Shown here: positions 14,131-31,907 of the stretch, one piece after another
Layout: the number at the start of each line of letters is the position of its first letter
How positions within the stretch are numbered: position 1 is the first letter of the stretch
DNA from: Minisyncoccota bacterium
GTDB taxonomy: Bacteria; Patescibacteriota; Minisyncoccia; Phycocordibacterales; JABAAK01
Direction of reading: 5' to 3'
Assembly: GCA_965204115.1 (NCBI GenBank)
Contig: OZ241963.1
Coordinates: 377,548 to 441,547, forward strand
DNA length: 64,000 nucleotides
Notes under the pieces: model-generated
Told to the model about the DNA's origin: nothing
The model's input: the letters and a program-made list of their open reading frames with translations, nothing else
Databases searched by the model: none
Position numbers and translations under genes: made by a program

Positions 14131-14201
14131 GCGAGTATAGTTTAGTGGTAGAACGCGGCCTTGCCATGGCTGAGACGGGAGTTCGATTCTCCCTACTCGC
14201 A
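14131..14201 (+). tRNA. tRNA-Gly (anticodon GCC)
   Basis: Acceptor GCGAGTA/TACTCGC, anticodon loop TTGCCAT, T-arm GGGAGTTCGATTCTCCC. Confidence 0.8.
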
Positions 14202-14246
14202 CTGACATCATACAGATGTGACGCTTTTCTTTTTTCGCAGTGAGTT

Positions 14247-14972
14247 CTAACGGTGCTTTTTCAGGTGCGTCGTAAAAAATGCAAGTGCATCTTCCAGTAT
14301 CTCTCTTTTCATAGGTTTAAAAAACTCTTTTTTGTGAATTGGCTGATTTACTTTTCTATCCCCTTCTAAAAGGGTGATGATATGCAGTGTGTAATCGAAG
14401 TAAGACATGAGAGTGTGGGTGCTGGCACTGCCGAATTTTTTCTCTTTGAAAATATCGGAGTAATCTCCTCCGAGCTGGCTTTCAAATTGAAACAATACAA
14501 CTTCTGCGTCAGGAGACATTTCTTTAATAAAGGATCCGTCAATTAGCACTCGTTTTATCATCGCATTTTCTGCGTATGATTTACATTCAATGGCCATAAC
14601 GAGATTCTCTCTGATGTATACTGGCACATCTATCTTAAACTTGTAGGAATAATCTTTTATATTTTTCTTTATGTAACCAGCTACCTCTTTATCCTGCACT
14701 CTTTTCAGGTAGTCCTTTTTCAGCGGAACAGTCACAGCGCCCTTGTTAGTTCTTAAATCAGAAATGTCACCAGTTAGGTTAAACCACGCTCTTTTGACAA
14801 GTCCGCGTGCAAACGCTTCAACAAAAGAACCTTTGATGGACCGCTCTATCCCGCCGGATGCCCGCTGCCTGTCCTGCACTTTAAAATCTACATCCTCAAC
14901 TAATGAATTATATGCCTCCAGCAACTCATCAATTGTTGGGATGTCGGGAATATTTGGAGCATCTTGTGACAT
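14247..14972 (-). CDS. Putative Type II restriction endonuclease (PD-(D/E)xK-like)
   Basis: 241 aa, AT-rich, immediately downstream of and co-oriented with a DNA methyltransferase. Candidate catalytic motif IDVPVY..ENLVMAIECKSY (D..E-x-K). Confidence 0.5.
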   Translation of the reverse strand: MSQDAPNIPDIPTIDELLEAYNSLVEDVDFKVQDRQRASGGIERSIKGSFVEAFARGLVKRAWFNLTGDISDLRTNKGAVTVPLKKDYLKRVQDKEVAGYIKKNIKDYSYKFKIDVPVYIRENLVMAIECKSYAENAMIKRVLIDGSFIKEMSPDAEVVLFQFESQLGGDYSDIFKEKKFGSASTHTLMSYFDYTLHIITLLEGDRKVNQPIHKKEFFKPMKREILEDALAFFTTHLKKHR

Positions 14973-14983
14973 ATACTTCTGTA

Positions 14984-16225
14984 TTAGAGCAGTCTACCAC
15001 TTAATCGTCTTTTTGCAACATCACAATATTCTTTTGATATATCAATTCCCAAATATCTTCTGTCAAGTGTGTGGGCAACACTAGTGGTCGTCCCAACGCC
15101 ATTAAAAACATCTAATATTACATCGTTTTTAAAACTAAACAACTTTAGACATCGTATCACAAGGTTTTCAGGAAACATTGCAGGATGGCCGTATTCTTTC
15201 ATTTTTCTTTCTGGTGCGATAGACCACTTAGCGACAACCCATTTTTTAAACTCCTCTGCTGATATATCAATGTTTTCTGCATCTCCTGCATGCTTTAAGT
15301 CACCCTTGCAAAAAACCTCAATGAATTCCCATGTGTACTTGAGGTATGGGCTGCTCGGACTCTTCCAACTACCCCACGCTGTATACTTGCAATTATAGTT
15401 GTTTTTTTCCCACAATATCTCCCCTTTCCAAAGCATGCCGATATCCAACAGGTACTTGGAAATAAGATGATGTGTCGGGATGTAATCTGAAAACAATGGT
15501 TGCACATTCACAATCATTCGCCCTCCGTGTTTTAACACTCGCCTTGTTTCATTTAGTATAGCGAAAAGTTGCGTAAAGTACTCATCCCATCTTTTATCAT
15601 CTTCACCACTTTCATATTCAAGACCAAAGTTGTATGGTGGCGATGTTACCATCACATCAATGCAATTGTCAGGTAATTTTTTGAGCACCTCCAAACTGTC
15701 ACCGCATACTATCGCGTTTTCATATTCAGATGGCAAGATGTTTGTTTGTGTGTCGTTTTTATTATTTTTTTTCTTTACGCTGGCAGTTCTCTTCTCAGAT
15801 TTTTCTTTTCTGTTCTTTACCTTTCGCTCCTTATTAAAATTAATATATACTCTTTTCCCGCTTCGCAATCCATATGAACCAATGCTGTCGACCGCCTCAA
15901 CGAAATCGTCAATTAAATCTACCATTACCAGATCTTCACCTTCACTTGCTTTTATCTCTAATGCTCGTATTTTGAACTTTTCAAAGTTAAGATTATTAAC
16001 AAAAAGCTTTACTTCCCTTGCTCCCTTTGGCTCAAAGTAGATATGGTTATCAAATTCGTTGAAAAACGAGCGCATGACATCTTGGCTTTTCTTGTCAAAT
16101 TGATGCCTGGTTCTCAATGCAACCTCTTTATATTCCATATGTTTAGTATATCTCACAAAATTTATTGTCAATAATGATATCCCGAATTGATGAATGATTG
16201 CAAAATGCGCAGTAAATCTTATCAA
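14984..16225 (-). CDS. Beta-class DNA methyltransferase (SPPY motif, probably N4-cytosine or N6-adenine) with N-terminal extra domain
   Basis: Motif IV TSPPY precedes the C-terminal AdoMet motif I VILDVFNGVGTT (beta-class order). The N-terminal ~160 aa is unassigned; an internal start at MEYKEV (~16138) is possible. Confidence 0.8.
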   Translation of the reverse strand: MIRFTAHFAIIHQFGISLLTINFVRYTKHMEYKEVALRTRHQFDKKSQDVMRSFFNEFDNHIYFEPKGAREVKLFVNNLNFEKFKIRALEIKASEGEDLVMVDLIDDFVEAVDSIGSYGLRSGKRVYINFNKERKVKNRKEKSEKRTASVKKKNNKNDTQTNILPSEYENAIVCGDSLEVLKKLPDNCIDVMVTSPPYNFGLEYESGEDDKRWDEYFTQLFAILNETRRVLKHGGRMIVNVQPLFSDYIPTHHLISKYLLDIGMLWKGEILWEKNNYNCKYTAWGSWKSPSSPYLKYTWEFIEVFCKGDLKHAGDAENIDISAEEFKKWVVAKWSIAPERKMKEYGHPAMFPENLVIRCLKLFSFKNDVILDVFNGVGTTTSVAHTLDRRYLGIDISKEYCDVAKRRLSGRLL

Positions 16226-16283
16226 GCAGCATAGACAGCAAATTGATTATATTCCGATTCTTTGTTACAGTTACATTCTCACA

Positions 16284-18281
16284 TTAATCTAAACCGAGGC
16301 GGTGAAAAAAAATATTATTCCTTTCCTCAGCGTCAGTTAATAATTGATCCCAAGTGACATATTCTATGTGTAGATTATAGGCACTATGCCACTTTACCCA
16401 TCTATGCCCATTTGGCAATTGCTTAAACTCTCTTCTTTCCAGCCAGATTTTTACCTTTTCCGAATAATCAGCAATAATATATCCATAAAATGGCGTATTG
16501 TCTGAAATCTGTATCGGCCTGTTTTGCGGACTTTTTATTTCTCCGCTTTTAATTTTCTCAACATAACGAATGATTTGATCATGGGAATCCTCTTTCGAAG
16601 AGGGGTTGGCAAAACTATCCTCGCCAGGTCTTTTAAATTCGAATATGGATACAGGATTACTCGGAACATCTGACCCCCTGAATGTTACTTTTTTATTAAA
16701 CACAATTAAATCAGCTCTGTCCTTGCATTTTTCAACAAAATCTTGATCTGACCTTAAATACTCAACAAAATTTAACCTTTCATCTAGTATCCAGAGATTG
16801 TGGTCACGGAAATGAACTTGTTCAGAGTCTTTCTTTGCGGGAAAAATTATATTGTGTAATGTATTTTCTTTTTCATGTTTTTTGTCTTCACCTATACCCA
16901 AGGCTCTGGTAAAAACATCTAAGTAAATTTTTCTCAATGTAACATAGTGCGCCAATTCACTCTGTTTTGCAGTGTCAATTTTTTCAAATGCCTCTTCTAT
17001 TTTCTTTTCTACATCCCCGTCAAAATTTTTCAAGACATCATTTATTTTCTCTCTACCGTCTTTTTCTTCTAGATATCTTGCGTTGTGAAAAACATCCTCC
17101 ATATCGTCATCTGATGGATTCATTGGTAATTTATCTAGGCCAATTTTTTCCTCGTAATGTTTATACCAAGGGTGCTTGTCTAGATATTCAGACACTTTCT
17201 GCTTCTTTTTTTCTCGCCTACTTTTCAAATCATCAGAATAAGTATTTTTCACAATTTCAGCGACTTTTTCTTCTATTTCCTTTTGAGAAAACGGATGCAG
17301 CATATCTTTTTCTTTATTAAACTTGAAACCTGATCTCTCCATGTTGACATTATCATTTAAGTATTTTCCTAAAACATAAGCCTTTATTATGTAATTCTTT
17401 TTGACCAACTTATTTCCCTTGGCAGACTCAGATTCTTCATAAAAATCATCATCGAACTCTGTAACATAATCAGAAAAATTCGCTGTGTCAACTTCTCTAT
17501 TGTGTGCAGTAAAGACCATCCTGCTTTTCTGTGAATTTGTAAAAAATACTTTAAACATTTTTACCTGGAAAGACTCTTTTCTGTTTTCATTTTTTAATAA
17601 AAATTTCTCTTCCTCATCCAAGAATATTTCATCACTATTATTAAACAAATCATTTAGAACTATCTCTTCGCACCCCTCTTCCTTTAAGACTATTTTTGGC
17701 ATTTTATCAGAAGAAACGAAGTACACAAGCATCCTTTCTAATATATTTCGTGCAACTGTTTTCAATTCTTTATCAAACCTCTTGTCTCCTAAAAGCCTGT
17801 TTAATAGAATAGTTGTTCCTGTTTCTTGAGCAATGTCTTTATCATATTTTGGGTTTTCTACTATGTCTCGCTTCTTGCCAAAATTAAATTCAATTGATTT
17901 TTGCTCATTTTTATCTTCATAGGTTGATTTAACTATAACTTTATCAAAATATTCTATATATGAAAATCTACCAAATCCTTTGCCACCTTTTGCGACTTTA
18001 TCATCTGTGTAAAGGGTATCAAAGGCATCTAGGTTATTTTTGTTTAAACCAATCCCGTTATCAAAGATTTCAACATTCAAAAAATGATTTTTTCCTGCGC
18101 TCTCCATCAATTTTTGCTGGTTTTCATCTCGTTTGAAAGTGACGGATATCAAACCGTCATCGTGATTTCCTTTCTCCTCAATTGCCTCAATACTGTTCAT
18201 TATTGCCTCAATAATAGGATGATAGACGGTACTTTTTCCACTCATATGTCTAACCACTCCCTCAATGTTTATCTTTGACAT
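16284..18281 (-). CDS. GHKL (Bergerat-fold) ATPase fused to a C-terminal restriction-endonuclease-like domain; paraMORC-like defence candidate
   Basis: N-box HPIIEAIMNSIEA, G1 box DNGIGL, G2 box GGKGFGRFS; long K/E-rich helical middle; C-terminal ADLIVFNKK..VSIFEFKRP is D..E-x-K-like. First gene of an apparent GHKL-M-R operon. Confidence 0.6.
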   Translation of the reverse strand: MSKINIEGVVRHMSGKSTVYHPIIEAIMNSIEAIEEKGNHDDGLISVTFKRDENQQKLMESAGKNHFLNVEIFDNGIGLNKNNLDAFDTLYTDDKVAKGGKGFGRFSYIEYFDKVIVKSTYEDKNEQKSIEFNFGKKRDIVENPKYDKDIAQETGTTILLNRLLGDKRFDKELKTVARNILERMLVYFVSSDKMPKIVLKEEGCEEIVLNDLFNNSDEIFLDEEEKFLLKNENRKESFQVKMFKVFFTNSQKSRMVFTAHNREVDTANFSDYVTEFDDDFYEESESAKGNKLVKKNYIIKAYVLGKYLNDNVNMERSGFKFNKEKDMLHPFSQKEIEEKVAEIVKNTYSDDLKSRREKKKQKVSEYLDKHPWYKHYEEKIGLDKLPMNPSDDDMEDVFHNARYLEEKDGREKINDVLKNFDGDVEKKIEEAFEKIDTAKQSELAHYVTLRKIYLDVFTRALGIGEDKKHEKENTLHNIIFPAKKDSEQVHFRDHNLWILDERLNFVEYLRSDQDFVEKCKDRADLIVFNKKVTFRGSDVPSNPVSIFEFKRPGEDSFANPSSKEDSHDQIIRYVEKIKSGEIKSPQNRPIQISDNTPFYGYIIADYSEKVKIWLERREFKQLPNGHRWVKWHSAYNLHIEYVTWDQLLTDAEERNNIFFHRLGLD

Positions 18282-18401
18282 ACTGTTTATTTTAACATTA
18301 AATATCCTAATTTTTAATTATCTTAGATGTATTTTGGGCGCCCGCTTGATTCGGATATGTCGTATGTCGTAAAAGAGTAATCTGCGAGTGAGTGATGTTG
18401 G

Positions 18402-19454: not shown

Positions 19455-22400
19455 CTACTCCGCATCGTTGGAGTGGGTGGCGCCAATATTGCCCGCTCTG
19501 TCACGCACGATGAAACAGACGCCGTTTAGAGCGGTGGTGGGCAACTCGTAGAAGGTGAACGGTGTGTATTCGTCGCCATCGGTCGGGAAGACGGTGAGCG
19601 CGTCACATTCGGTTTTGGTCATCGCCTTTACCGCGACGGTGTCAACAGAGTCAACGGCCGCGGGCGGATCGCTGGGCGCGCCGAAGATGACTATGTCTTC
19701 GCTGCCAGTGATATTCCGGTCTTCTATACGAGAGAGCTGCATGCGCGGACTATTGACATCAATGGCAACGGTAAATTGTTCGGATTCCTGAGAGGTGTTC
19801 CCTGCGATGTCGGTCGCGGTCGCGGTGAGGGCGATAAGTCGTGATTCCTCAGGTAGGGTTCGGGTGATGGTGGCGGGAGTCCCGTCACTTCCAATGACTC
19901 CACTCGCGCCTCCTGAATCGGACAAAACAGCAACGGTATTCGGTTCAGCGCTTATCAAGAAGGTCAGATCGGTGAAGCGGTTGGTAATCCCATCCGAATT
20001 GCTCAAGCCGCTATCGTATTCGGTGGCGAGCGTGATGGCGGATGGCGGCGCGGGCGCGGTGGTGTCAATAATAATATCAAGCTGCTGTGTTGAAGTGGTC
20101 ACATTGCCCGGTATGTCCGAGACCGTTATACTCACCTGCTGCGGCTTGTTCTCGTCGTCGGGTTGCACGATGTAGGAGGCGTTGTAGCTGCCGGGGACAC
20201 CGGTTACCGACAGCGCGGTGCCGATCGCATCTGTGCCGGTGAATATACGCACGGTCGGTAGGGCGTTGTTGAAATTCAAATCTGACTCGGAAAATACTAT
20301 GTTGATGGTGTCACCCGCTTTCGCGTACTTACCGGTGTTGTTGACGGTGCCGGATGTGTTCGTGATGATCTCACCGACGAAAGGCGGTGTGGTGTCTATG
20401 TCAATGATACGCGCCGAGCGGGCGAACGAGACATTGCCGACTGCGTCGCGGGCGCGGAAACAGACATACTGCCCGTTGTACGCTTCGTCGTCCAGCACGA
20501 TACTTCCTCCGGAGGTGTAGAGATCGCCGTCTGTGTCGCTGTCAATCAGGGTTTCGTCACAGACATCACTTGTGATGACATATCGGTCGCCGGCATCCAC
20601 GGCAAGACCGGTCACGCTCGCGCTGACGACTTTTAGCCGGGCAGGGTCGGATGTCGGTCCGAATGGTGTTATGACCGGACCGGTTCGGTCTATGCCGGTA
20701 ATCTGCGCCGAGCGGGCGAACGAGACATTGCCGATTTCGTCGCGGGCGCGGTAACAGATGTAGCGTCCGTTGTATGCCTCGTTGTCCAGCACGATATTCC
20801 TGCCTGAAACATACAGATCACCATCGGCATCACTCGCGATTACGGTTTCATCACAGGCCCCGTCCGTGATGACATATCGGTCGCCGGCATCCACGGCAAG
20901 ACCGGTCACGCTCGCGCTGACGACTTTTAGCCGTGCTGTGCCGGGTTCCGGTCCGAATGGTGTTATGACCGGACCGCTCTGGTCTATGCCGATAATCTGA
21001 TCAGATCGCGTGAATGAGATATTGCCGACTGTATCAGCGGCGCGGAAACAGACATGCTGCCCGTTGTATGCTTCGTCGTCCAGCACGATACTCTCTCCGG
21101 AGGTGTAGAGCTCGCCGTCTGTGTCGGTTCTGATCAGGTCGGAATCACACGCATCGCCGGAGATGATGTAGCGGCTCTTTGCTACATCGGCATCGCCGGT
21201 GATACTGGCACTGACACTCTTGACGAGCGCCGGCTCGGTCGTTAGATCAGCAACCGCAATGGTCGGTGCTGTGGTGTCTATCCCGTCTATCTGTAGTGAG
21301 CGCACAAACGAGACATTGCCGGCTTCATCGCGGGCGCGGTAACAGATGTAGCGTCCGTTGTATGCCTCGTTGTCCAGCACGATATTCCTGCCTGAAACAT
21401 ACAGATCACCATCGGCATCACTCGCGATTACGGTTTCATCACAGGCCCCGTCCGTGATGACATATCGGTCGCCGGCATCCACGGCAAGACCGGTCACGCT
21501 CGCGCTGACGACTTTTAGCCGTGCTGTGCCGGGTTCCGGTCCGAATGGTGTTATGACCGGCGGTGTTCGGTCTATGCCGGTGATCTGTGCGGAACGGGCG
21601 AATACGATATTACCGATAGCGTCTCGTGTACGGAAACAGACATGCTGCCCGTTGTACGACTCACTGTTTAGCGCGACATTTGTGCCGGGAATATAGAGTT
21701 CGCCGTCGATATCGCTTGCAATCAGCGCTTCATCACAGGGCTCGCCTGAAATGATGTACCGCGTACCCGTGGCAACCAGTGAGAGATCCGTGATTTCTGC
21801 GCTGATGTTTTTTATTCGTGCCGTACCCCCGGAAAGCGCGGCGACATTGATAGACGGACCGGAGGTGTCTATCCCGTTTATTTGCTGCGAGCGGGCGAAC
21901 GAAACATTGCCGATCGCATCGCGGGCGCGGTAGCAGATGTAGCGTCCGTTCTGCTCCCGATCATCCAGTATGATACTGCCGCCGGAGGTATACGCCTCGC
22001 CGTCGGCATCACTCGCGATCACGGTTTCATCACAGACCTCGTCCGTGATGACATATCGGTTACCGACCGCCTCAGCGAAGCCGGTTACCCGTGCGTTGGC
22101 GACTTTCAGCCGCGCCGCGCCGGATTCCGGTCCGAACGGTGTGATGACCGGACCGCTGCGGTCTATGCCGGTGATCTGCGCGGAACGGGCGAACGAGACA
22201 TTGCCGATCGCGTCGCGCGCGCGGAAACAGACATATTGCCTGTTGTACGCTTCATCATCCAGCACGATACCGCCGCTCGGGGTATATGCTTCGCCGTCGG
22301 TATCACTTGCGATCACGGTTTCATCACAGACCCCGCCCGTGATGACATATCGGTTGCCGGCGTCTGCGGCAAGGCCGGTAATACTCACTGCGGCGACTTT

Positions 22401-25400
22401 TACCTGCAAGGTACCGGGTTCCGGACCGACCGGTGTGATGACCGGTGGTGTCCTATCTATGTCGGTTATTTGCTCAGATCGGGCGAACGAGACATTGCCG
22501 ACCGTGTCAGCGGCGCGGAAACAGATATATTGCCCATTGTACGATTCATCGTCAAGCGCGATATCCGTGCCGGAGGTATACGGCTGTCCGTCTGCGCTAC
22601 TGCCGATGAGAGAGGCATCGCAGGCACCAGTTGAAATAGCATACTGACTACCGACGGTTGCTGATCTGTCGGTTATCACTGCGCTGACGGTCTTCTCTTG
22701 TGAGGTTCCCGATGCCGGATTGTTCAGGGTGATAGTCGGACCGACACGGTCAATGCCGGTGATCTGCTCAGATCGGGCGAACGAAACATTGCCGACCGTG
22801 TCTGCTGAGCGGAAGCAGACATACTGCCCGTTGTATGTCTCGTTGTCCAGCGTAATGTCCGCGCCGGGGACATAGGGTTCGCCATCTGAGTCGCTGCCGA
22901 TGAGGTCTGTGTCGCAGGCGCCGTTTGCAATACGGTACCGACTACCCGCTGCTGCAACATTGCCAGTAATGGTGGCACTGACGGTTTTTGTCTGTGCTTC
23001 ACCGGTGATTGGTTCAGTAATAGTGATCACCGGAGCAGTTCGGTCTATCCCGCTGATCTGTTCGGAACGGGCGAATGCGATGTTACCCACTTCATCGCGA
23101 GCGCGGAAACAGACATAGTGTCCGTTGTGTGCCTCTTCATCCAGCACGATGTTCTCGCCGGCGGTGTAATTCACGCCATCTGAGTCGCTACTGATGAGTC
23201 TGCTGTCACAGTTTCCGTCTGAGAGTATATATTGCGTACCGGTGTCAACAGGCAGTCCGGTCGCGCTCGCGCTCGCGACTTTCAGCCGCGCAAGACCGGC
23301 TGACGGACCGAGTGTCGTGATAACCGGTGGTGTCCTATCTATGCCGGTGATCTGCTCAGATCGGGCGAACGAAACATTGCCGACCAAATCTGAAGCGCGG
23401 AAACAGGCGTACTGCCCGTTGTATGTCTCATCGTTGAGCGCGATGGTCGCGCCGGAGGTGTACGGTCTGCCGGTCGCGCTGTTACCGATGAGCGATTCAT
23501 CACAGGAGGCATCTGAAATGATATAGCGTGTGTCCGTCGTGATTGCACCGTCGGTAACAATCGCGCTGACAAACTTCTCCTGCGCGGCACCTGTTGACGG
23601 GTCGTTCAGGGTGATGGTCGGACCGGTGCGATCTATGTCAGTGATACGCGCCGAACGGACGAACGAGACATTGCCTGCCGCGTCTCGAGCGCGGAAACAG
23701 ACATGTTGCCCGTTGTATGACTCGTCGTCAAGCGTGATATCCGTGTCGGAGGCATAGAGTTCGCCATCCGCGTCGCTACTGATGAGGGTCGCATCACAGG
23801 CGGATGATGTAATAAGGTATCGCGTGCTCTCAGCGACCGCATCACCGGTGATGACGGCACTCACCAGTTTTTCCCGCGCGTCGCCGAATGCCGGATCAAC
23901 CACCCGCACTGTCGGTGCAGTGCGGTCTATGCCGGTGATCTGCGCGGAACGCGTGAACGAGACATTACCGACCGCGTCGCGAGCGCGGAAGCAGACATAC
24001 TGTCCGTTGTATGCCTCGTCATCAAGTGTGATACTCTTGCCGGAGGTGTATGCTTCGCCGGCAATGTCGCCGCTGATAAGGGTTGCATTGCAGACACTGC
24101 CGGCAATAGTGTACCTGCTGCCGGTAATAGCGGCATCCTCGGCAATCGCAGCGCTGACGGTCTTTTCCCGCGCCGCTCCCACTACCGGATCGGTTACTGT
24201 TACTGTCGGACCGGTACGATCTATGCCGGTGATCTGCTCAGATCGGGCGAACGAGACATTACCGACCGCGTCGCGTGCGCGGAAGCAGACATATTGCCTG
24301 TTGTACGCCTCGTCGTTGAGTATGATGGTCGCGCCGGAGATATACGGTCTGCCGGTCGCGCTGTTACCGATGAGCGATTCATCACAGGAGGCATCTGAAA
24401 TGATATAGCGTGTGTCCGTCGTGATTGCACCGTCGGTAACAATCGCGCTGACAAACTTCTCCTGCGCGGCACCTGTTGACGGGTCGTTCAGGGTGATGGT
24501 CGGGCCGGTGCGATCTATGTCGGCTATCTGCGCGGAGCGGGCGAATGAGACATTGCCTGCCGCATCCGAGACGCGGAAGCAGACATACTGTCCGTTGTAT
24601 GCTTCATCGTTGAGCGCGATATTTGTGCCGGAGGCATAGAGTTCACCATCTGTATTACTGCTGATGAGTGCTGCGTCACAGGCGGATGATGTAATAAGGT
24701 ATCGCGTGCTCTCAGCGACCGCATCACCGGTGATGACGGCACTCACCAGTTTTTCCCGCGCGTCGCCGAATGCCGGATCAACCACCCGCACTGTCGGTGC
24801 AGTGCGGTCTATGCCGGTGATCTGCGCGGAACGCGTGAACGAGACATTACCGACCGCGTCGCGCGCCCGGAAGCAGACATACTGCCCGTTTTGCAGCTCA
24901 TTGTTCAGTGTAACCTCCTCTCCGGAGGTGTATGCTGCCCCTTCGGTATCGCTGCCGATGAGATCAGCATCACAATCTTCAGAAGAGATGGCGTACCTGC
25001 TGCCGGCAGTAGCGGCATCTTCGGCAATCGCAGCGCTGACGGACTTCTCTCGCGCTGTTTCTCCTGCCGGATTGGTCACTGATACTGTCGGACCGGTACG
25101 ATCTATGCCGGTTATCCGCGCGGATCGGGCGAAGACGATGTTATTCACTGTGTCACGCGCCCGGAAGCAGACATACTGTCCGTTGTATGCCTCGTCATCA
25201 AGTGTGATACTCTCGCCGGAGGTGTATGCCGTTCCCTCAGTATCGCTTCCGATGATGTCCGCATCGCAGTCCTCGGTTGTGATGTCATATCGGCTTGCCG
25301 CGGCAATCAGGTGGGTGTCCTCAATCTCCGCGCTGATACTCTTCAGCTGTGCCGCTCCTGATGTCGGCTCGGTGATACTGATTGACGGCTTAATCCGGTC

Positions 25401-28400
25401 AATACCGTCAATCTGCGCCGACCGAGTGAACGAGACATTGCCGACTGCGTCGCGTGCCCTGAAGCAGACATGTTGCCCGTTGTACTCTTCCTTATCCAGG
25501 TTGATGGTATTACCGGCGGTGTAGGAGGTGCCGTCTGTGTCGCTGCCGATGAGATCACTGTCGCAGTCTTCGGTTGTAATGGCATATCGGCTACCGATGG
25601 CGATCGCGATGCCGGTAATACTCGCGCTGACCACTTTCAGCGGCGAGACCCCCGCTGTCAAGCCGAGTGTCGTAATAGTCGGACCGGTGCGGTCTATGCC
25701 GGTTGTCTGCGCGGAACGGGCGAATGAAATATTGCCGGCACTGTCGGATGCCCGGAAGCAGATATGCTGCCCGTTGTATACCTCATCATTAAGGGTTATG
25801 CTCTCTCCGGATTGGTATGTCTGCGCATTGAAACCGATAAATAGTTCAGTATCACAATCTTCGTCTGCAATGCGGTACTTTGTTTCCGTCGCTGATGAGT
25901 CCGTGATCTTGGCACTCACGGTTTTTGTCCGCGCCGCGCCGGTTGCCGCCTCGGTGATGGTGATGTTCGGACCGCCGGTGTCAATGGTTACAGTGATGTC
26001 AGATGTCCATGCGTCCGTATTGCCGGCATCGTCCAGCGCCTGTAAGTATATCCGTTGTGGACTGCGGTTCTCGTCACCGACAGCGATGGTATAGGTGCCA
26101 GTATAGGTGCCGTCGGCACCCTTATTCACCGTTACACTTTCACCGCTTGTCTTCCCGCTGCTGAAAATTCGCATAACCGGATCGGTTCCCAAATGCTCGT
26201 CAACGATCACAGCGTTCACGGTGATGGTATCCCCCGTGCCGGCATAGGTAGTGCCGTCAGCGTCGGAACCTGAGCTCGTTATGGTTACTCCCCCGAAGGT
26301 CGGTTCCGTTCGGTCAATGTTGTCAATCACCGAAGAGCGCGCGAAACGCACATTACCCGCTTCGTCGCGTGCCCGGAAACAGACATACTGCCCGTTTTGC
26401 AGCTCATTGTTCAGTGTAACCTCCTCTCCGGAGGTGTACGCTGTCCCTTCGGTATCGCTGCCGATGAGATCAGCATCACAATCTTCAGAAGAGATGGCGT
26501 ACCTGTTCCCCACACTGACCGGGTTCGCGTCCGTGATGGTCGCGGCAACGGTTTTCTCCCGCGCTGCGCCTTCCGCCGGTTCTGTGACGCTGATTGTCGG
26601 TGCGCTTCGGTCTATTCCGGTGATCACCGATGAGCGCGCGAATGAGATATTGCCGATAATATCCCGGGCGCGGAAACAGACATACTTACCGTTATGCTGC
26701 TCACTGTTCAGATCAATGTCCGTGCCGGAGATGTATGCATTGCCGCTACTGTTGTCGCTGATAAGGTTTTCATCGCATGCGCTCTCTGAAATGACATACC
26801 GTGCACCGGCGATAACGATGTTTTTGTCCGTGATGCCCGCTTTGAGCGTCTTTTCCTGTGCCGCGCCGGTGGCGAGTGATCCGACACTGATAACCGGATC
26901 AACTGTGTCAATGATGACTCCGATATCGACTCCGCGTCCGCTGAGGTTTCCGGCTGCGTCACGCGCCTCCATGTGCAGGAGTTGCGTTGAACGATCTTCA
27001 TCGTCGGCACGCACGGTGTAGGTCGCGGTGTAGGTGCCGTCGTTGTTGTCGGTCACTTGCATTGCTTCGCCGAGTGTGCTGTTCTCGCTGAAAATCTTGA
27101 CTGTGGGCAGTCCGCTGAAGTTCGTGTCCGATACAGAGAGTGTGGCGGTGATGGTGTCTCCCGCTCCGGCATAGTAGGTGCTTTCGTAGGCACTGTCTGT
27201 GGTGACCGAAACGGTGCTAATAACCGGATTCGTTCGGTCAATGCCGGTGATCACTTTTGAGCGGGCGAACGAAATATTGCCCACCGCATCGCGCGTCCTA
27301 ACACAGAGGTACTTGCCGTTGTAGGTTTCACTGTTGAATGCGATGCCGCTGCCGGAAACATACCGATCGCCTTCAGTGTCCGAACCGATGACCTCCTCGT
27401 CACAGGAGCCGTTCGCAATGATCGCGCGGCGAGTGCCGGCGGCAATTGCATCCGCACTGATGGTCACACTAATTGTCTTTGTGTTCGTTACACCGTCCGG
27501 ATGAATAATACTGATTGTCGGCCCGGTGCGGTCAATACCGCTTATTTTCGCCGATCTCGCGAAGACGACATTCCCCGCCTTGTCCCGCGCGCGGAAGCAG
27601 ACATACTGCTCGTTATACGCTTCGTCGTTCAGCGTGATCTCCGCGCCGGAGGTGTAACTGTTGCCGCTCGTGTCGCTTGCGATGAGGTCTTTATCGCATG
27701 TTTTGTCTGAGATACTGTAGCGAGTGCCGCTCGTGAGTATGCCGCTGCCGACATCACTGAGTGTCGCGCTGACTGTTTTCTCCCGTGATCCGCCTGCTGG
27801 TATAGCGGTAACACTGACAGTCGGCGCCGCGGTATCAATGACCACCCCGAGTGTGCCGGTGCCGGTGCTGACATTGTCGGCGTCATCCTGCGCCCGCACA
27901 AATATCTTTTGCACAGCACTGTCTTCGTCATCAGGGCGTACTGTGTGGGTTAGCGTATAGTTTCCATTATCAATTCTGTTCACCGTCATAGCGGTGCCGC
28001 CCGTCGTTGTCTCGCTGAATATCCGCGCTTCCGGAAGTGCGATGAGATTTGAATCGGCAATGAGTACGGTTCCGGTGATAATATCCCCCGCTTTCGCATA
28101 CTTCACACCGTTGGCAGTGATGCCGGTGGTGGTGATATGTATATTACCGATCGCCGGACTGATTCGGTCTATTCCGGTGATCATCGACGAGCGGGCGAAC
28201 ACGATATTGCCGGCACTGTCACGCGCGCGGAAGCAAACATACTTCTCGTTGTAATGTTCACTGTCCAGCGCGACATTATTACCGGAAGTATATGCCTTGC
28301 CATCATCGTCATTGCCAATGAGGTCTGCATCACAATCGTCTGCTGAAATAGTGTAGCGGGTGCCGCTGGTGTCCGCGTCCGCGCTGACAATCGCGCTGAT

Positions 28401-31400
28401 GCCTTTCTCCCGCTGCACGCCGCTCCTCGCCTCGGTAATACTGATGGTCGGTGCCGTGGTGTCTATGCCCGTCACTTGTGTCGAACGCGCGAATGAGACA
28501 TTGCCCGCGACATCAATTGTCCGAAAGCAGACATAACTGCCATTTTGCGCTTCGTCGTCCAACACAATCGCGCGACCGGAGGTGTAGGGTTCGCTGTTCG
28601 CACTGGCTGCCAGGGTACTCTCGTTGCAGATTGAGCTTTTTGAAATGAGGTATCGCGCACTTTTGGGGTTCGCGTCTATTATTTTCGCACTAACGGTTTT
28701 TTCCTGTGCCGTGCCGCTTGATGCTTCGGTAACGGTAATCGTCGGTACGGTGGTGTCAACAATTATTGTTTTTCCGTATCCGTCGGTACCGCCGGCGTAG
28801 GTGGTGTCGGGAATGGTGTTACCCACTGCATCGGCAATTGCCTTGATGGTGAAGCTTAGATCACCGTTCTCCCCCGCGACAACAGTGTGTACCCATTGAA
28901 AAATTTTCGCATTATTCGCGCCGTCTTGCGACAAAATGATCGGTGTGCCGGTGACGGTCTCTCCGTCCAGATGTATCGCTATGCGACTAACCGCGTTATC
29001 CGAGAAACTGAGCTGGTCAGCGACGGTTGCCTGGATGGTTATCTGATCTCCCGCCTGTGCGGCAGTTGTAATCTCGTTGTTCGTGGTCGCGTGTACGCTT
29101 GAGAGTGTCGGCGGGGTGGTTTCCGCTTCAATAATCTTAATTTCCTGACTTTCGTCGGGTGCTGCGTTTCCCGCATTGTCCTTTAAATCGGTAACAGACC
29201 ATCTCAACACGCCGTTGTCTCCGGGCTGGATCGTGTACGGGTACCGTACATGACCGGCGGCGGCACCCTCAACAGTACCCGCTTCCGCATCTCGGTACGC
29301 TTCGTCGCCGAACTTTACTTTCCAGAGCCCCGCGCTGTGCGAAGAAAAGCCGCTGGCGCTCACTTCGTTGTTGTATCTCCGTTCAATGATGATCGTACTG
29401 CCTGCCGGAAGGTACTTAACGACGCCGTCAAATCTTTTTTTGGCGGCATCGCTGGTGCCGTTGATGTAATAATCGGTTGCACTTGCAACCGGTCTCGTGG
29501 TGTCTATGACCACCCCGATGTCAACGCGATGACCTCCGGCATTACCGGCATCATCACGCGCCTCCAGGTGAATCTTTTTCGGGGTTTTACTCTCATCGCC
29601 CGACTGGACGGTATAGGTGGCGATGTACCCCTGCTCGCCGGTTTTCCTCACGGTCATGCCGGTGCCGCCGGCAGCGCTCTCGCTGAATACTCGCATCACC
29701 GGAAGCGTGGTCAGGTGCTCGTCAGAAACGGTTGTAGTCGCGACGATGTCATCCCCCGCTTTTGCGTATTTATTGGTGCCGTAGACATTGCCCGAAGTGG
29801 TTACGGCGATATTCCCTATTACCGGATTTGTGCGGTCTATGTCGGCGATTTGCGCCGAACGCGCGAATGAGACATTGCCGAGTGTGTCACGCGCGCGGAA
29901 ACAGATGTAGGAACCGTTCTCATCTTCCCTGTTCAGCGTGATAACACTGCCGGAGGTGTAGTTCACACCGGCGGTGTCACTCCCGATAACACTTTCGTCG
30001 CAGTCCTCAGATGAAACTGTGAAACGGATACTGCCGGTGACGGCAGTTGCGTCAATTGTCGCGTGCATGGTTTTCTGTCGAGCAGCACCTCCTCCGGGTC
30101 CGACAGTGGTGATAGATGGTCCCGTCCGGTCTATGCCGTTTATCCGCGCAGATCGCGCGAACGAAATATTACCCGCTTTATCGCGTGCCCGAAAACAGAG
30201 ATATGTGCCGTTGTACCCTTCATTTTTCAGGACGACAGCTTCGCCTGAAGTCCATGCGCTCCCCACCCCATCACTACCGATGAGTGCTTCGTCACAAGTC
30301 GCGCTTGAGATAACATAACGGTTGCCGGTTGCGTCCGTGTTGGTGTCTGTTACGGTCGGGGTTATGCTCTTGCTCTGCGCTGCGCCTGACGCAGGGTCGG
30401 AGATGCTGAGTGCCGGGCTTGTGGTATCGATTTTCATCGCGTTCGTTGACACCTGCACGGTTGTGCTTTTGCCGTCGCTTGCCGCGAAACAGGCATATTT
30501 GCCGGAATGATTTTCTGTGTTGAAAGTTGCCGTGTACTCCTCGCCACGCTCCGGTGACGGAACGACCACAAAGGATGTTGGCGGTGTGGTGCCGTTATAT
30601 GTGGAATTATCGAGGCATTCTGCACTGGTTTCGACTTGCTGATAGCTCAAGTACAGCGTGTCATTTGGGTTAACATCACTAAGGCGCACGGTAAAGCCGT
30701 GCGATCTTGCCCAAGTGTTCGGGATATCATTAATTATTGTCAGTATCGGTGGGGTATTTTGTGGTGCGATAGCCGGAGAGACAGCACTGCGTATGTTTCC
30801 TGAGTAATCTTCCGCATAGACGCATATCTTGTCGGACAGGGCATTCGGCACGGTATACGAGTAGGACACCTCCTTTGGTAATCCCCCCGGTTCCACGACT
30901 TTCCCGCTGCTGACCTCGTTGTAGGTATCGCAGGCAGTTGAGTCCTCAGACCCGCTGATTTTTAGTGCGCCGTAGCGGTATATACCTGACTGGCTGTCTG
31001 TAATATTGATCGTATAGTTTTTTTCCACTTCTGGTGTGCCTGGAAAGGTTATAATAGGGGTGGTGTTATCCGGCTCATCTGCTTCAATGCTGTTGAGTGT
31101 CCAGGTTTCGTTATTCGCAGTGTTGCCCGCATTGTCGCTCGGTCCGGTGAGGGAAAATTTGAGTACGCCGTCGTCGCCAGGAGCGATGGTGTATGAGTAC
31201 CTCACCCTGCTGTTGCTGTCAAACACGGTGCCGTTGCTCATATTCCTCCACCGTCCGTTGCCGAATCTGATCCGCGCTACGCCGGCGTTCCCCGGAGACA
31301 GACCGCTCTCTCTTCCTTCGTTGGCGTACAACAGCATAATGGCAATCCGGGTGCCGGCGTTCACTTTACTGTGAACATTGAGATTTTTCTTCACCTCGTT

Positions 31401-31907
31401 AATGAAATAGTCAGTTGTGGTGCGTACCGGAGGTCTGGAATCTATTCGCAGTGTTCCGTGGAGCGGTATGTTCACGATGCCCCATGTGTCAAAAAACGAC
31501 ACGCATGCCTTGTTTGTTACTGTAAATAAACCGTGCTTAATGGGAAACTGTATGTTCCTTGTCTGTTCTCGATTACCCGGCACACTCAGCTGTACGCTAT
31601 TTGAAATTTCAGTCGCGTGGCCGTTGCAATTTGGATGTGAAAAATTGAGAAGACGCATCTCGGGGCGCACGGTCGCGGAGCTGAATGTCCGGTAGGTGAA
31701 GGTTACCCATGCGGCGATAGTATCGTTGTTACCCAGCCACCTGTTAATATTTGAAGTGTACGAAGCCCTGTTCGCCGCAAAAACATTCGGCATAAACACC
31801 GTTAAACCGATGAACGGCACAAAACATATGAGTAAAATATAAAGGGCTACTCGATACCTGCGAACGAAAAAAGACCTGTCCATAGGTGATGGGACTAAAA
31901 TTGACAA
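19455..31907 (-). CDS. Giant (4150 aa) membrane-anchored surface protein with ~35-40 tandem ~95-aa Ig-like repeats
   Basis: Single 12.45-kb ORF with N-terminal TM helix. Repeat unit ..GIDRTGPTI(T/S)..G.A.EKTVSA.I.D....RY.IS...CD..LIGSD..G..YTSG..I.LDDEAYNGQYVCFRARDAVGNVSFARSAQIT. Many repeats are near-identical at the DNA level. Confidence 0.85.
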   Translation of the reverse strand: MSILVPSPMDRSFFVRRYRVALYILLICFVPFIGLTVFMPNVFAANRASYTSNINRWLGNNDTIAAWVTFTYRTFSSATVRPEMRLLNFSHPNCNGHATEISNSVQLSVPGNREQTRNIQFPIKHGLFTVTNKACVSFFDTWGIVNIPLHGTLRIDSRPPVRTTTDYFINEVKKNLNVHSKVNAGTRIAIMLLYANEGRESGLSPGNAGVARIRFGNGRWRNMSNGTVFDSNSRVRYSYTIAPGDDGVLKFSLTGPSDNAGNTANNETWTLNSIEADEPDNTTPIITFPGTPEVEKNYTINITDSQSGIYRYGALKISGSEDSTACDTYNEVSSGKVVEPGGLPKEVSYSYTVPNALSDKICVYAEDYSGNIRSAVSPAIAPQNTPPILTIINDIPNTWARSHGFTVRLSDVNPNDTLYLSYQQVETSAECLDNSTYNGTTPPTSFVVVPSPERGEEYTATFNTENHSGKYACFAASDGKSTTVQVSTNAMKIDTTSPALSISDPASGAAQSKSITPTVTDTNTDATGNRYVISSATCDEALIGSDGVGSAWTSGEAVVLKNEGYNGTYLCFRARDKAGNISFARSARINGIDRTGPSITTVGPGGGAARQKTMHATIDATAVTGSIRFTVSSEDCDESVIGSDTAGVNYTSGSVITLNREDENGSYICFRARDTLGNVSFARSAQIADIDRTNPVIGNIAVTTSGNVYGTNKYAKAGDDIVATTTVSDEHLTTLPVMRVFSESAAGGTGMTVRKTGEQGYIATYTVQSGDESKTPKKIHLEARDDAGNAGGHRVDIGVVIDTTRPVASATDYYINGTSDAAKKRFDGVVKYLPAGSTIIIERRYNNEVSASGFSSHSAGLWKVKFGDEAYRDAEAGTVEGAAAGHVRYPYTIQPGDNGVLRWSVTDLKDNAGNAAPDESQEIKIIEAETTPPTLSSVHATTNNEITTAAQAGDQITIQATVADQLSFSDNAVSRIAIHLDGETVTGTPIILSQDGANNAKIFQWVHTVVAGENGDLSFTIKAIADAVGNTIPDTTYAGGTDGYGKTIIVDTTVPTITVTEASSGTAQEKTVSAKIIDANPKSARYLISKSSICNESTLAASANSEPYTSGRAIVLDDEAQNGSYVCFRTIDVAGNVSFARSTQVTGIDTTAPTISITEARSGVQREKGISAIVSADADTSGTRYTISADDCDADLIGNDDDGKAYTSGNNVALDSEHYNEKYVCFRARDSAGNIVFARSSMITGIDRISPAIGNIHITTTGITANGVKYAKAGDIITGTVLIADSNLIALPEARIFSETTTGGTAMTVNRIDNGNYTLTHTVRPDDEDSAVQKIFVRAQDDADNVSTGTGTLGVVIDTAAPTVSVTAIPAGGSREKTVSATLSDVGSGILTSGTRYSISDKTCDKDLIASDTSGNSYTSGAEITLNDEAYNEQYVCFRARDKAGNVVFARSAKISGIDRTGPTISIIHPDGVTNTKTISVTISADAIAAGTRRAIIANGSCDEEVIGSDTEGDRYVSGSGIAFNSETYNGKYLCVRTRDAVGNISFARSKVITGIDRTNPVISTVSVTTDSAYESTYYAGAGDTITATLSVSDTNFSGLPTVKIFSENSTLGEAMQVTDNNDGTYTATYTVRADDEDRSTQLLHMEARDAAGNLSGRGVDIGVIIDTVDPVISVGSLATGAAQEKTLKAGITDKNIVIAGARYVISESACDENLISDNSSGNAYISGTDIDLNSEQHNGKYVCFRARDIIGNISFARSSVITGIDRSAPTISVTEPAEGAAREKTVAATITDANPVSVGNRYAISSEDCDADLIGSDTEGTAYTSGEEVTLNNELQNGQYVCFRARDEAGNVRFARSSVIDNIDRTEPTFGGVTITSSGSDADGTTYAGTGDTITVNAVIVDEHLGTDPVMRIFSSGKTSGESVTVNKGADGTYTGTYTIAVGDENRSPQRIYLQALDDAGNTDAWTSDITVTIDTGGPNITITEAATGAARTKTVSAKITDSSATETKYRIADEDCDTELFIGFNAQTYQSGESITLNDEVYNGQHICFRASDSAGNISFARSAQTTGIDRTGPTITTLGLTAGVSPLKVVSASITGIAIAIGSRYAITTEDCDSDLIGSDTDGTSYTAGNTINLDKEEYNGQHVCFRARDAVGNVSFTRSAQIDGIDRIKPSISITEPTSGAAQLKSISAEIEDTHLIAAASRYDITTEDCDADIIGSDTEGTAYTSGESITLDDEAYNGQYVCFRARDTVNNIVFARSARITGIDRTGPTVSVTNPAGETAREKSVSAAIAEDAATAGSRYAISSEDCDADLIGSDTEGAAYTSGEEVTLNNELQNGQYVCFRARDAVGNVSFTRSAQITGIDRTAPTVRVVDPAFGDAREKLVSAVITGDAVAESTRYLITSSACDAALISSNTDGELYASGTNIALNDEAYNGQYVCFRVSDAAGNVSFARSAQIADIDRTGPTITLNDPSTGAAQEKFVSAIVTDGAITTDTRYIISDASCDESLIGNSATGRPYISGATIILNDEAYNRQYVCFRARDAVGNVSFARSEQITGIDRTGPTVTVTDPVVGAAREKTVSAAIAEDAAITGSRYTIAGSVCNATLISGDIAGEAYTSGKSITLDDEAYNGQYVCFRARDAVGNVSFTRSAQITGIDRTAPTVRVVDPAFGDAREKLVSAVITGDAVAESTRYLITSSACDATLISSDADGELYASDTDITLDDESYNGQHVCFRARDAAGNVSFVRSARITDIDRTGPTITLNDPSTGAAQEKFVSAIVTDGAITTDTRYIISDASCDESLIGNSATGRPYTSGATIALNDETYNGQYACFRASDLVGNVSFARSEQITGIDRTPPVITTLGPSAGLARLKVASASATGLPVDTGTQYILSDGNCDSRLISSDSDGVNYTAGENIVLDEEAHNGHYVCFRARDEVGNIAFARSEQISGIDRTAPVITITEPITGEAQTKTVSATITGNVAAAGSRYRIANGACDTDLIGSDSDGEPYVPGADITLDNETYNGQYVCFRSADTVGNVSFARSEQITGIDRVGPTITLNNPASGTSQEKTVSAVITDRSATVGSQYAISTGACDASLIGSSADGQPYTSGTDIALDDESYNGQYICFRAADTVGNVSFARSEQITDIDRTPPVITPVGPEPGTLQVKVAAVSITGLAADAGNRYVITGGVCDETVIASDTDGEAYTPSGGIVLDDEAYNRQYVCFRARDAIGNVSFARSAQITGIDRSGPVITPFGPESGAARLKVANARVTGFAEAVGNRYVITDEVCDETVIASDADGEAYTSGGSIILDDREQNGRYICYRARDAIGNVSFARSQQINGIDTSGPSINVAALSGGTARIKNISAEITDLSLVATGTRYIISGEPCDEALIASDIDGELYIPGTNVALNSESYNGQHVCFRTRDAIGNIVFARSAQITGIDRTPPVITPFGPEPGTARLKVVSASVTGLAVDAGDRYVITDGACDETVIASDADGDLYVSGRNIVLDNEAYNGRYICYRARDEAGNVSFVRSLQIDGIDTTAPTIAVADLTTEPALVKSVSASITGDADVAKSRYIISGDACDSDLIRTDTDGELYTSGESIVLDDEAYNGQHVCFRAADTVGNISFTRSDQIIGIDQSGPVITPFGPEPGTARLKVVSASVTGLAVDAGDRYVITDGACDETVIASDADGDLYVSGRNIVLDNEAYNGRYICYRARDEIGNVSFARSAQITGIDRTGPVITPFGPTSDPARLKVVSASVTGLAVDAGDRYVITSDVCDETLIDSDTDGDLYTSGGSIVLDDEAYNGQYVCFRARDAVGNVSFARSARIIDIDTTPPFVGEIITNTSGTVNNTGKYAKAGDTINIVFSESDLNFNNALPTVRIFTGTDAIGTALSVTGVPGSYNASYIVQPDDENKPQQVSITVSDIPGNVTTSTQQLDIIIDTTAPAPPSAITLATEYDSGLSNSDGITNRFTDLTFLISAEPNTVAVLSDSGGASGVIGSDGTPATITRTLPEESRLIALTATATDIAGNTSQESEQFTVAIDVNSPRMQLSRIEDRNITGSEDIVIFGAPSDPPAAVDSVDTVAVKAMTKTECDALTVFPTDGDEYTPFTFYELPTTALNGVCFIVRDRAGNIGATHSNDAE

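Follow-up and report, generated by a model that had tools for sequence, protein, structure and literature searches.

Proteins that join a GHKL ATPase to a C-terminal nuclease have been named more than once. In 2008, Iyer, Abhiman, and Aravind (Biol Direct; PMC2292703) defined paraMORC3 as the combination of a GHKL domain, an S5 domain, and a C-terminal restriction endonuclease (RE)-fold nuclease with E-D-ExK motifs, found its distribution to be wide and sporadic, and noted that its members are linked to superfamily II (SF2) helicases, methylases, and restriction-modification (R-M) operons or stand alone; for paraMORCs they predicted a role in looping DNA between the recognition and cleavage sites of R-M systems. 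A preprint later placed a GHKL fold with an Hsp90/MORC-like middle domain in Type 1D Shedu (Gu et al. 2023; PMC10441436). VcSduA, from the WASA lineage of Vibrio cholerae, is the product of a single gene in which a GHKL ATPase is joined to a PD-(D/E)xK (DUF4263) nuclease (Adams et al., Nat Microbiol 2025; PMC12137116). On its own it guards Escherichia coli from Drexlerviridae and V. cholerae from phage X29, protection is seen at all multiplicities of infection (MOIs), and defence is lost in the E27A or K557A mutant; the same authors state that GHKL-Shedu proteins "were previously annotated as paraMORC3" (Adams et al. 2025). Here we examine a 665-amino acid (aa) protein of this kind and the gene pair beside it, which together form a three-gene islet in a 64-kb stretch (64,000 nucleotides) of contig OZ241963.1 from a Minisyncoccota bacterium; we refer to the whole stretch as the window.

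An earlier note on this DNA had read the three genes as a paraMORC-type GHKL ATPase fused to a nuclease, set at the head of a Type II methyltransferase-endonuclease (M-R) operon within a defence island, and had suggested that they might be an ATP-dependent module not yet described. We consider it probable that the islet consists of two separate defence modules that happen to be adjacent, an immune nuclease of the VcSduA family and a classical Type II R-M cassette.

Results

Three open reading frames (ORFs) on the minus strand take up positions 14247-18281 of the window, as determined by ORF calling (Table 1). In the product of the largest, a GHKL ATPase leads into an S5-like transducer domain and then a helical region, and a PD-(D/E)xK nuclease forms the C-terminus. 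Its Bergerat motifs are complete (N-box E25/N29; G1 D74-N75-G76-x-G78; G2 K101-G102-F103-G104-R105), and when 41 members of the family are aligned, E25, N29, D74, N75, K101, G102, F103, and R105 are invariant, while G76, G78, and G104 are conserved in at least 90%. In the C-terminal part, E472, D500-E501, D512, D524, and E548-x-K550 are invariant in the same alignment. Because they are conserved across these 41 members, the GHKL and nuclease motifs, as judged from the alignment, exceed chance.

Table 1. Features of the islet and its border, given as positions in the window
Feature	Position	Strand	Basis
tRNA-Gly(GCC) at the islet border, separated by 44 bp from the 241-aa gene (stop end)	14131-14202	+	ARAGORN
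Type II restriction endonuclease, PD-ExK (D115...E129-x-K131), 241 aa	14247-14972	-	PADLOC REase_II, conserved pairing
Beta-class N4/N6 DNA methyltransferase, 384 aa	14984-16138	-	SPPY...FNGVGTT, Pfam, PADLOC, homologues
Spacer of 145 bp separating the GHKL and methyltransferase genes	16139-16283	-	Read from sequence
VcSduA-like GHKL-nuclease (Shedu type I-D / paraMORC3), 665 aa	16284-18281, including stop	-	ORF, full-length family, VcSduA BLASTP
C-terminal PD-(D/E)xK nuclease domain, residues ~470-665	16287-16874	-	D524, E548-x-K550; invariant E472, D500, E501, D512
Helical region, residues ~333-461	16899-17285	-	DSSP helices; lower pLDDT at 410-450
Beta-rich transducer / S5-like middle domain, residues ~170-320	17322-17774	-	DSSP of model, Foldseek
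GHKL (Bergerat) ATPase domain, residues ~1-165	17787-18281	-	Conserved motifs, Pfam near-threshold, Foldseek

An AlphaFold2 model of the protein, with a predicted local distance difference test score (pLDDT) of 81.7, resolves the four parts. When this model was searched with Foldseek, 330-520 columns aligned with the GHKL and transducer modules of Topo VI-B (1mx0), GyrB 43K (1kij), ParE (1s16), MORC3 (5ix2), PMS1 (3h4l), and Hsp90/GRP94, with E values down to 3e-10 and with 400-520 columns for the five entries named by PDB code; MutL was also among the matches, and the C-terminal domain gave RE-fold matches. In the model, an S5 (transducer) domain is predicted to follow the GHKL domain. Structure prediction, named in the earlier note as a check on a GHKL ATPase fused to an RE-fold nuclease, recovered both the GHKL and transducer module and the RE-fold C-terminus. 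At E <= 10, neither the protein sequence nor its C-terminal profile matched an entry in the PDB, and a search of PHROGs returned nothing. Within the family, Pfam matches to HATPase_c and HATPase_c_3 lie at or near threshold. Identity with MutL, GyrB, a histidine kinase, or Hsp90 was rejected, as Pfam and NCBIfam gave no MutL_C, Toprim, HisKA, or Hsp90 match at E <= 1 and the C-terminus is of the PD-(D/E)xK type instead.

Residues 1-399 of VcSduA (AWB73059.1, 673 aa) match residues 5-406 of the 665-aa protein in BLASTP with 29% identity (E = 3e-37), and the alignment sets E27 against E25. A V. fluvialis plasmid protein that is 63% identical to VcSduA aligns with residues 3-664 (E = 1e-62), and its D526, E554, and K556 fall on D524, E548, and K550. 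The Porphyromonas gingivalis protein PG_RS06305, which was the top match of the VcSduA model of Adams et al., is 38% identical to the 665-aa protein (E = 3e-74). Because this homology to VcSduA is direct, membership of the 665-aa protein in the VcSduA/paraMORC3 family (Shedu type I-D) is supported at the level of sequence, and the paraMORC label of the earlier note with it. The equivalence with paraMORC3 is based on the statement of Adams et al. (2025), as Iyer et al. (2008) name no gene identifiers.

VcSduA and the 665-aa protein are similar in length and identical in domain order, and the catalytic Glu (E27/E25) and the Lys of the ExK motif (K557/K550) are in place in both, but at less than 30% identity the 665-aa protein represents a distinct subfamily. 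The surroundings differ as well: within VSP-II, the neighbour of VcSduA is a GmrSD-like Type IV system, and in the window it is a Type II R-M pair. With paraMORC3 the family shares the GHKL, S5, and RE-fold nuclease domains, the E-D-ExK motifs, the sporadic spread, and the linkage to R-M genes and helicases or standalone occurrence; what differs is the role, predicted in the 2008 paper to be DNA looping as part of R-M systems, while the only relative tested so far needs no partner. The nuclease domain was also set against canonical Shedu SduA (DUF4263/SduA_C; Bacillus cereus 8ti8, E. coli 8ps4). Pfam SduA_C matches neither the 665-aa protein nor the VcSduA-like Vibrio protein, an hhalign alignment of the C-terminus with one canonical Shedu protein covered only the D...ExK core and was insignificant (E = 0.2), and generic restriction nucleases (N.BspD6I, FokI, and McrC) outscore canonical SduA against this domain. 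The N-terminal sensor is also different, being a GHKL ATPase, and GHKL-Shedu proteins are expected to be dimers rather than tetramers (Adams et al. 2025).

The two remaining genes encode a methyltransferase (M) and an endonuclease (R). The longest ORF for M runs from 14984 to 16225 (minus strand, 413 aa), but its start is the ATG at 16138, since the exact 384-aa protein is publicly recorded and homologues are 379-395 aa long (55-83% identity, 99-100% query coverage). SPPY (motif IV) precedes FNGVGTT (motif I), which is the beta-class order, and the protein matches Pfam N6_N4_Mtase (2.6e-39) and PADLOC MTase_II (5e-66). Since its best solved relatives are the DNA cytosine-N4 methyltransferases 8s9n and 8s9m (E = 7e-22, residues 131-380), N4-methylcytosine (m4C) is the likeliest product. 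The N-terminal extension, earlier put at ~160 aa and called unexplained, is real, but it measures ~135 aa and is conserved in a well-populated family of ~380-aa beta-class methyltransferases; the ~135 residues have no relative in Pfam or the PDB. The phage family profile phrog_67 aligns with M from residue 43 and so takes in part of this extension, and a Lys-rich linker, KERKVKNRKEKSEKRTASVKKKNNK, comes after the N-terminal domain (residues 1-135).

For the 241-aa protein, the PADLOC model REase_II (PDLC03499) gave a match at 3e-65 that spans model positions 9-239 of 241; the protein had no match among PDB sequences at E <= 10 and no plasmid relatives. In the window, M and R are co-oriented and 11 bp apart. 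Loci in three other genomes (L090, L091, and L092) show the same arrangement, an M homologue (68-83% identity) and then an R homologue (61-78%) within 3-26 bp, and D115...E129-x-K131 is invariant in their R proteins. Judged by the profile matches and this conserved pairing, M and R are a real, self-contained Type II R-M cassette, as had been thought. The pair resembles PvuII-type (beta-class N4-cytosine) Type II R-M systems in the position of SPPY before FxGxG and in the PD-ExK endonuclease, here with M followed by R; it differs from them in the extra conserved ~135-aa N-terminal domain of M and in having no controller (C) gene.

On the relationship between the GHKL gene and this cassette our reading departs from the earlier note, which put the former at the head of an M-R operon. 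In all three of the close relatives just mentioned, the M-R pair occurs with no GHKL gene nearby. Conversely, no homologue of the window's M or R was found beside other GHKL loci, bar one 23% match to M, and the closest GHKL relatives have unrelated partners: HindVP, a C5-methyltransferase, and serine recombinases in L088, an S subunit with an N6_Mtase/Eco57I gene in L001, and an unrelated, divergent pair of N6_N4 methyltransferases (L003), while L089 has no recognisable partner. In Dyella lipolytica (L004/L005/L009:6639-10010) the GHKL-nuclease lies 16 bp downstream of a co-oriented DarT-NADAR (DarTG) pair, a non-R-M defence partner with the GHKL-nuclease in the terminal position. Because M-R is found alone elsewhere and the GHKL relatives have unrelated partners, the GHKL gene and the M-R pair are probably not coupled in the window. 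Identity to the nearest homologue is 83% for M and 59% for the GHKL protein, a gap that suggests, from sequence comparison, different histories for the two genes. The spacer upstream of M contains TTGACA-15 nt-TATACT (16139-16175, minus strand), ending 6 nt before the ATG; this may be a promoter belonging to M-R itself, and transcription from it would give an M-R mRNA with little or no leader. A consensus scan lists TTGCAA-18-TATCAT at 16203-16174, and promoter-like sites in the region do not rise above shuffled expectation.

The family as a whole presents another picture. We surveyed the neighbours of the GHKL-nuclease at 73 unique genome loci, rich in Alphaproteobacteria, whose GHKL proteins are 37-46% identical to the 665-aa protein; ORFs were called heuristically, and neighbours were classified with local profiles that had been iterated from seed proteins, the Pfam check being made on the seeds. 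The motif [ND]PP[YFW] was present in 33 of the 36 N6_Mtase matches. A DNA methyltransferase was found within 8 kb at 36 of the 73 loci, and at 24 it belonged to the same-strand gene chain. The methyltransferase ORFs are distributed very unevenly, 40 upstream of the GHKL-nuclease (39 of them co-oriented) against 1 downstream, in 500 kb and 483 kb of flank, respectively (binomial p = 4e-11), and the upstream gene overlaps the GHKL start at 13 loci. An SF2 helicase is present at 16. The contexts comprise an MmeI-type IIG enzyme with a gene of unknown function, an SF2 helicase, and in some cases T5orf172 ahead of the GHKL gene (16 loci), Type I HsdM/HsdS (9), other large IIG-like enzymes (6), Type III Mod-Res (4), an AAA_13 ATPase (3), another methyltransferase nearby (1), and no recognised partner (34). 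On a Celeribacter plasmid the GHKL-nuclease follows a 1361-aa restriction endonuclease with a 4-bp overlap, and on a V. fluvialis plasmid it ends a Type I operon, again with a 4-bp overlap. R-M operons of diverse kinds thus usually have the GHKL-nuclease as their final gene, which confirms and quantifies the linkage reported in 2008 (Iyer et al. 2008), and a linkage so one-sided is not explained by random clustering in defence islands. The order in the window (GHKL, M, R) is the reverse of this family order, which favours mere adjacency.

Two arrangements in the survey deserve separate description. In Alphaproteobacteria a five-gene set recurs (16 of the 73 loci, among them L011:1138-10004 and L013:430-10007, the latter from Erythrobacter sp. 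NAP1), consisting of an MmeI-family IIG enzyme of 917 aa (PADLOC 6e-294) that carries all five of the MmeI domains in Pfam, an unknown protein of 290-337 aa, an SF2 helicase of ~685 aa, a T5orf172/MUG113 protein of ~400 aa, and the GHKL-nuclease, with overlapping starts. PADLOC has no system model for this set. It often precedes ArdC, which suggests that it is cargo of integrative and conjugative elements or plasmids. The second is the V. fluvialis IncC plasmid pIDH5335-1 (L086:1-10010), where a Type I R-M operon carries three extra genes in the order hsdR, AAA ATPase, hsdM, hsdS, canonical Shedu (SduA_C 1.3e-25), and VcSduA-like GHKL-nuclease, so that a single restriction operon holds two different Shedu-type nucleases in tandem. 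At 87-97% identity, close relatives were seen in V. cholerae, Klebsiella, Proteus, Aeromonas, and E. coli.

The GHKL-nuclease family is large. A word-index search with the 665-aa protein gave 493 matches, all of ~660-670 aa and with full-length coverage, and 757 representatives of 50%-identity clusters were found at E <= 1e-30 among 1.84 billion proteins. The gene is present in at least 563 species genomes from the Proteobacteria, Cyanobacteria, Acidobacteria, and lineages of the candidate phyla radiation, as well as one Altiarchaeota metagenome-assembled genome (MAG), on 55 plasmids (28 of them conjugative), and on 9 IMG/VR viral contigs; the closest genome matches of the 665-aa protein are in Saccharibacteria and Peribacteria. 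Databases name the homologues only "ATP-binding protein," apart from one source that has "sensor histidine kinase." Paracoccus angustae, P. sediminis, and Kaistia adipata (L081, L082, and L084) encode one and the same GHKL protein and do not differ in the 100 bases that were compared, and a Nitrospira MAG (L080) has the same gene order; this sharing reflects a single element transferred very recently or else contamination of assemblies or bins.

The islet differs in composition from its surroundings, with a G+C content of 0.30-0.41 (14250-18250) as against 0.43-0.56 in the left flank and 0.46-0.58 in the right. The earlier description of three co-oriented, low-G+C, minus-strand genes beside tRNA-Gly(GCC) was accurate, and every motif quoted in it (EAIMNSIEA, DNGIGL, GGKGFGRFS, ADLIVFNKK, IFEFKRP, and SPPY) was found. 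Because its G+C content is 15-25 percentage points lower than that of the flanks, the islet, with both its modules, looks horizontally acquired. A search of the borders found no integrase, and there is no att-like repeat of the 3′ end of the tRNA-Gly gene at the far border, so "island" is here a statement about composition and gene content only. Integration machinery is no longer present. About 1 kb from the islet begins a 4150-aa ORF (19455-31907, minus strand) with dozens of repeats that share the recurring motif "...NGQYVCFRARD..GN.SFARS..I.GIDRT.P..."; the product resembles a surface or adhesin-like protein of giant size. The window has 11 tRNA genes.

Discussion

What the islet adds is a divergent member of a validated defence family together with an ordinary Type II R-M cassette, and not a new system. 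The architecture once suspected of belonging to an undescribed ATP-dependent module is that of paraMORC3 (Iyer et al. 2008), of Type 1D Shedu (Gu et al. 2023), and of VcSduA, whose function has been demonstrated (Adams et al. 2025). The observations that carry our reading of two separate modules are the domain architecture, the conservation of the catalytic residues, the homology to VcSduA, and the independence of the M-R pair.

The mechanism that this reading implies, with its dimeric clamp, its trigger, and the target sequence, is proposed by homology, and the enzymatic activities are inferred from the mutagenesis of VcSduA and from what is generally known of GHKL ATPases and Type II R-M systems. 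The N-terminal GHKL domains of the 665-aa protein would dimerise upon ATP binding, and with the transducer and helical regions they would form a clamp that engages DNA or some other infection cue. Binding and hydrolysis of ATP, with E25 as the catalytic Glu, would gate the C-terminal nuclease (D524, E548, K550), and the gated PD-(D/E)xK nuclease would cut invading DNA, providing direct immunity rather than abortive infection. In the adjacent cassette, the beta-class methyltransferase, most likely by forming m4C, would protect host sites, leaving unmodified DNA to be cut by the PD-ExK endonuclease.

Several points weigh against this interpretation. VcSduA was compared directly through its residues 1-399, and the rest of it through the V. 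fluvialis relative. The best Pfam model for the ATPase, HATPase_c_3, scores 22.7 bits against a cutoff of 25, and none of PADLOC 2023, NCBIfam, and Pfam SduA_C recognises the 665-aa protein. The directional linkage of the family to R-M genes leaves room for functional coupling. Finally, the GHKL gene and M-R are co-oriented, and no terminator is predicted between them by a consensus scan that is itself not above chance; for both of these reasons the three genes may be co-transcribed.

The strongest alternative, which we nonetheless regard as unlikely, is that the three genes form one coupled system in which the GHKL-nuclease is an ATP-dependent accessory of the R-M pair, in line with the DNA looping proposed for paraMORCs (Iyer et al. 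2008), or a second-stage nuclease acting on DNA ends made by restriction. The family survey speaks for it, with 40 methyltransferase ORFs upstream and 1 downstream, overlapping starts at 13 loci, 4-bp overlaps on plasmids, and partners that span Type I, IIG (MmeI), and Type III enzymes and helicase sets; in the window, the genes share an orientation and are separated by 145 bp with no predicted terminator. The same survey also speaks against it, since the partner families are not conserved and a recognised partner is missing at roughly half of the loci. Moreover, the window's type of M-R pair stands alone in three of three relatives, its gene order opposes the family rule, a promoter-like element lies directly upstream of M, and VcSduA is sufficient by itself in E. 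coli (Adams et al. 2025). A related proposal concerns the family at large: GHKL-Shedu proteins may not be fully autonomous and may instead be polar, 3′-terminal add-ons that exploit or guard restriction, cooperating here with the Type II pair. A GHKL-Shedu protein of this sort could, for example, engage the DNA ends or nicks made by an R-M system and complete the destruction of the phage genome. This idea is compatible with the data because the 40:1 co-oriented linkage extends across Type I, IIG, III, and helicase sets and stop/start overlaps are frequent, although we think it improbable.

It is very unlikely that, instead of being a direct immune nuclease, the GHKL protein acts as a toxin-like effector or in abortive infection, or is the remnant of a decayed gene. 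Some Shedu-type proteins have been proposed to be abortive, according to the citation of PD-T4-8 in Gu et al. (2023), and a Zeta toxin lies near the GHKL gene in one genome; against this, VcSduA shielded cultures at all MOIs, which fits direct immunity (Adams et al. 2025), and decay is contradicted by intact catalytic residues, a full-length frame, and strong conservation throughout the family. That the protein is a housekeeping GHKL enzyme (MutL-like, the ATPase subunit of a topoisomerase, Hsp90-like, or a sensor kinase) we dismiss almost entirely, since the fold matches to the N-terminal modules of Topo VI-B, Hsp90, GyrB, and MutL and the one "sensor histidine kinase" label are set against a patchy distribution across phyla, carriage on plasmids, more than half of them conjugative, and on viral contigs, a G+C content far below that of the host, and defence genes as neighbours in other genomes. 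In keeping with the earlier note on this point, no signature of MutL, GyrB, or a histidine kinase is present, the nuclease fold is, and the neighbouring pair is an R-M system.

For the window, the significance of the islet is small: a GHKL-nuclease that is less than 30% identical to VcSduA and at most 59% identical to any database protein, and an R-M cassette of an ordinary kind. For the family the implications are larger. The GHKL-nucleases are under-annotated in defence censuses, missed by PADLOC 2023, NCBIfam, and Pfam SduA_C despite their 757 clusters. Their polar linkage to restriction operons, which is strong and unexplained, is the only thread of wider interest that we see in this locus, and it bears on the question of whether GHKL-Shedu proteins work by themselves, like the single example tested, or in most cases together with restriction enzymes, as was predicted in 2008.

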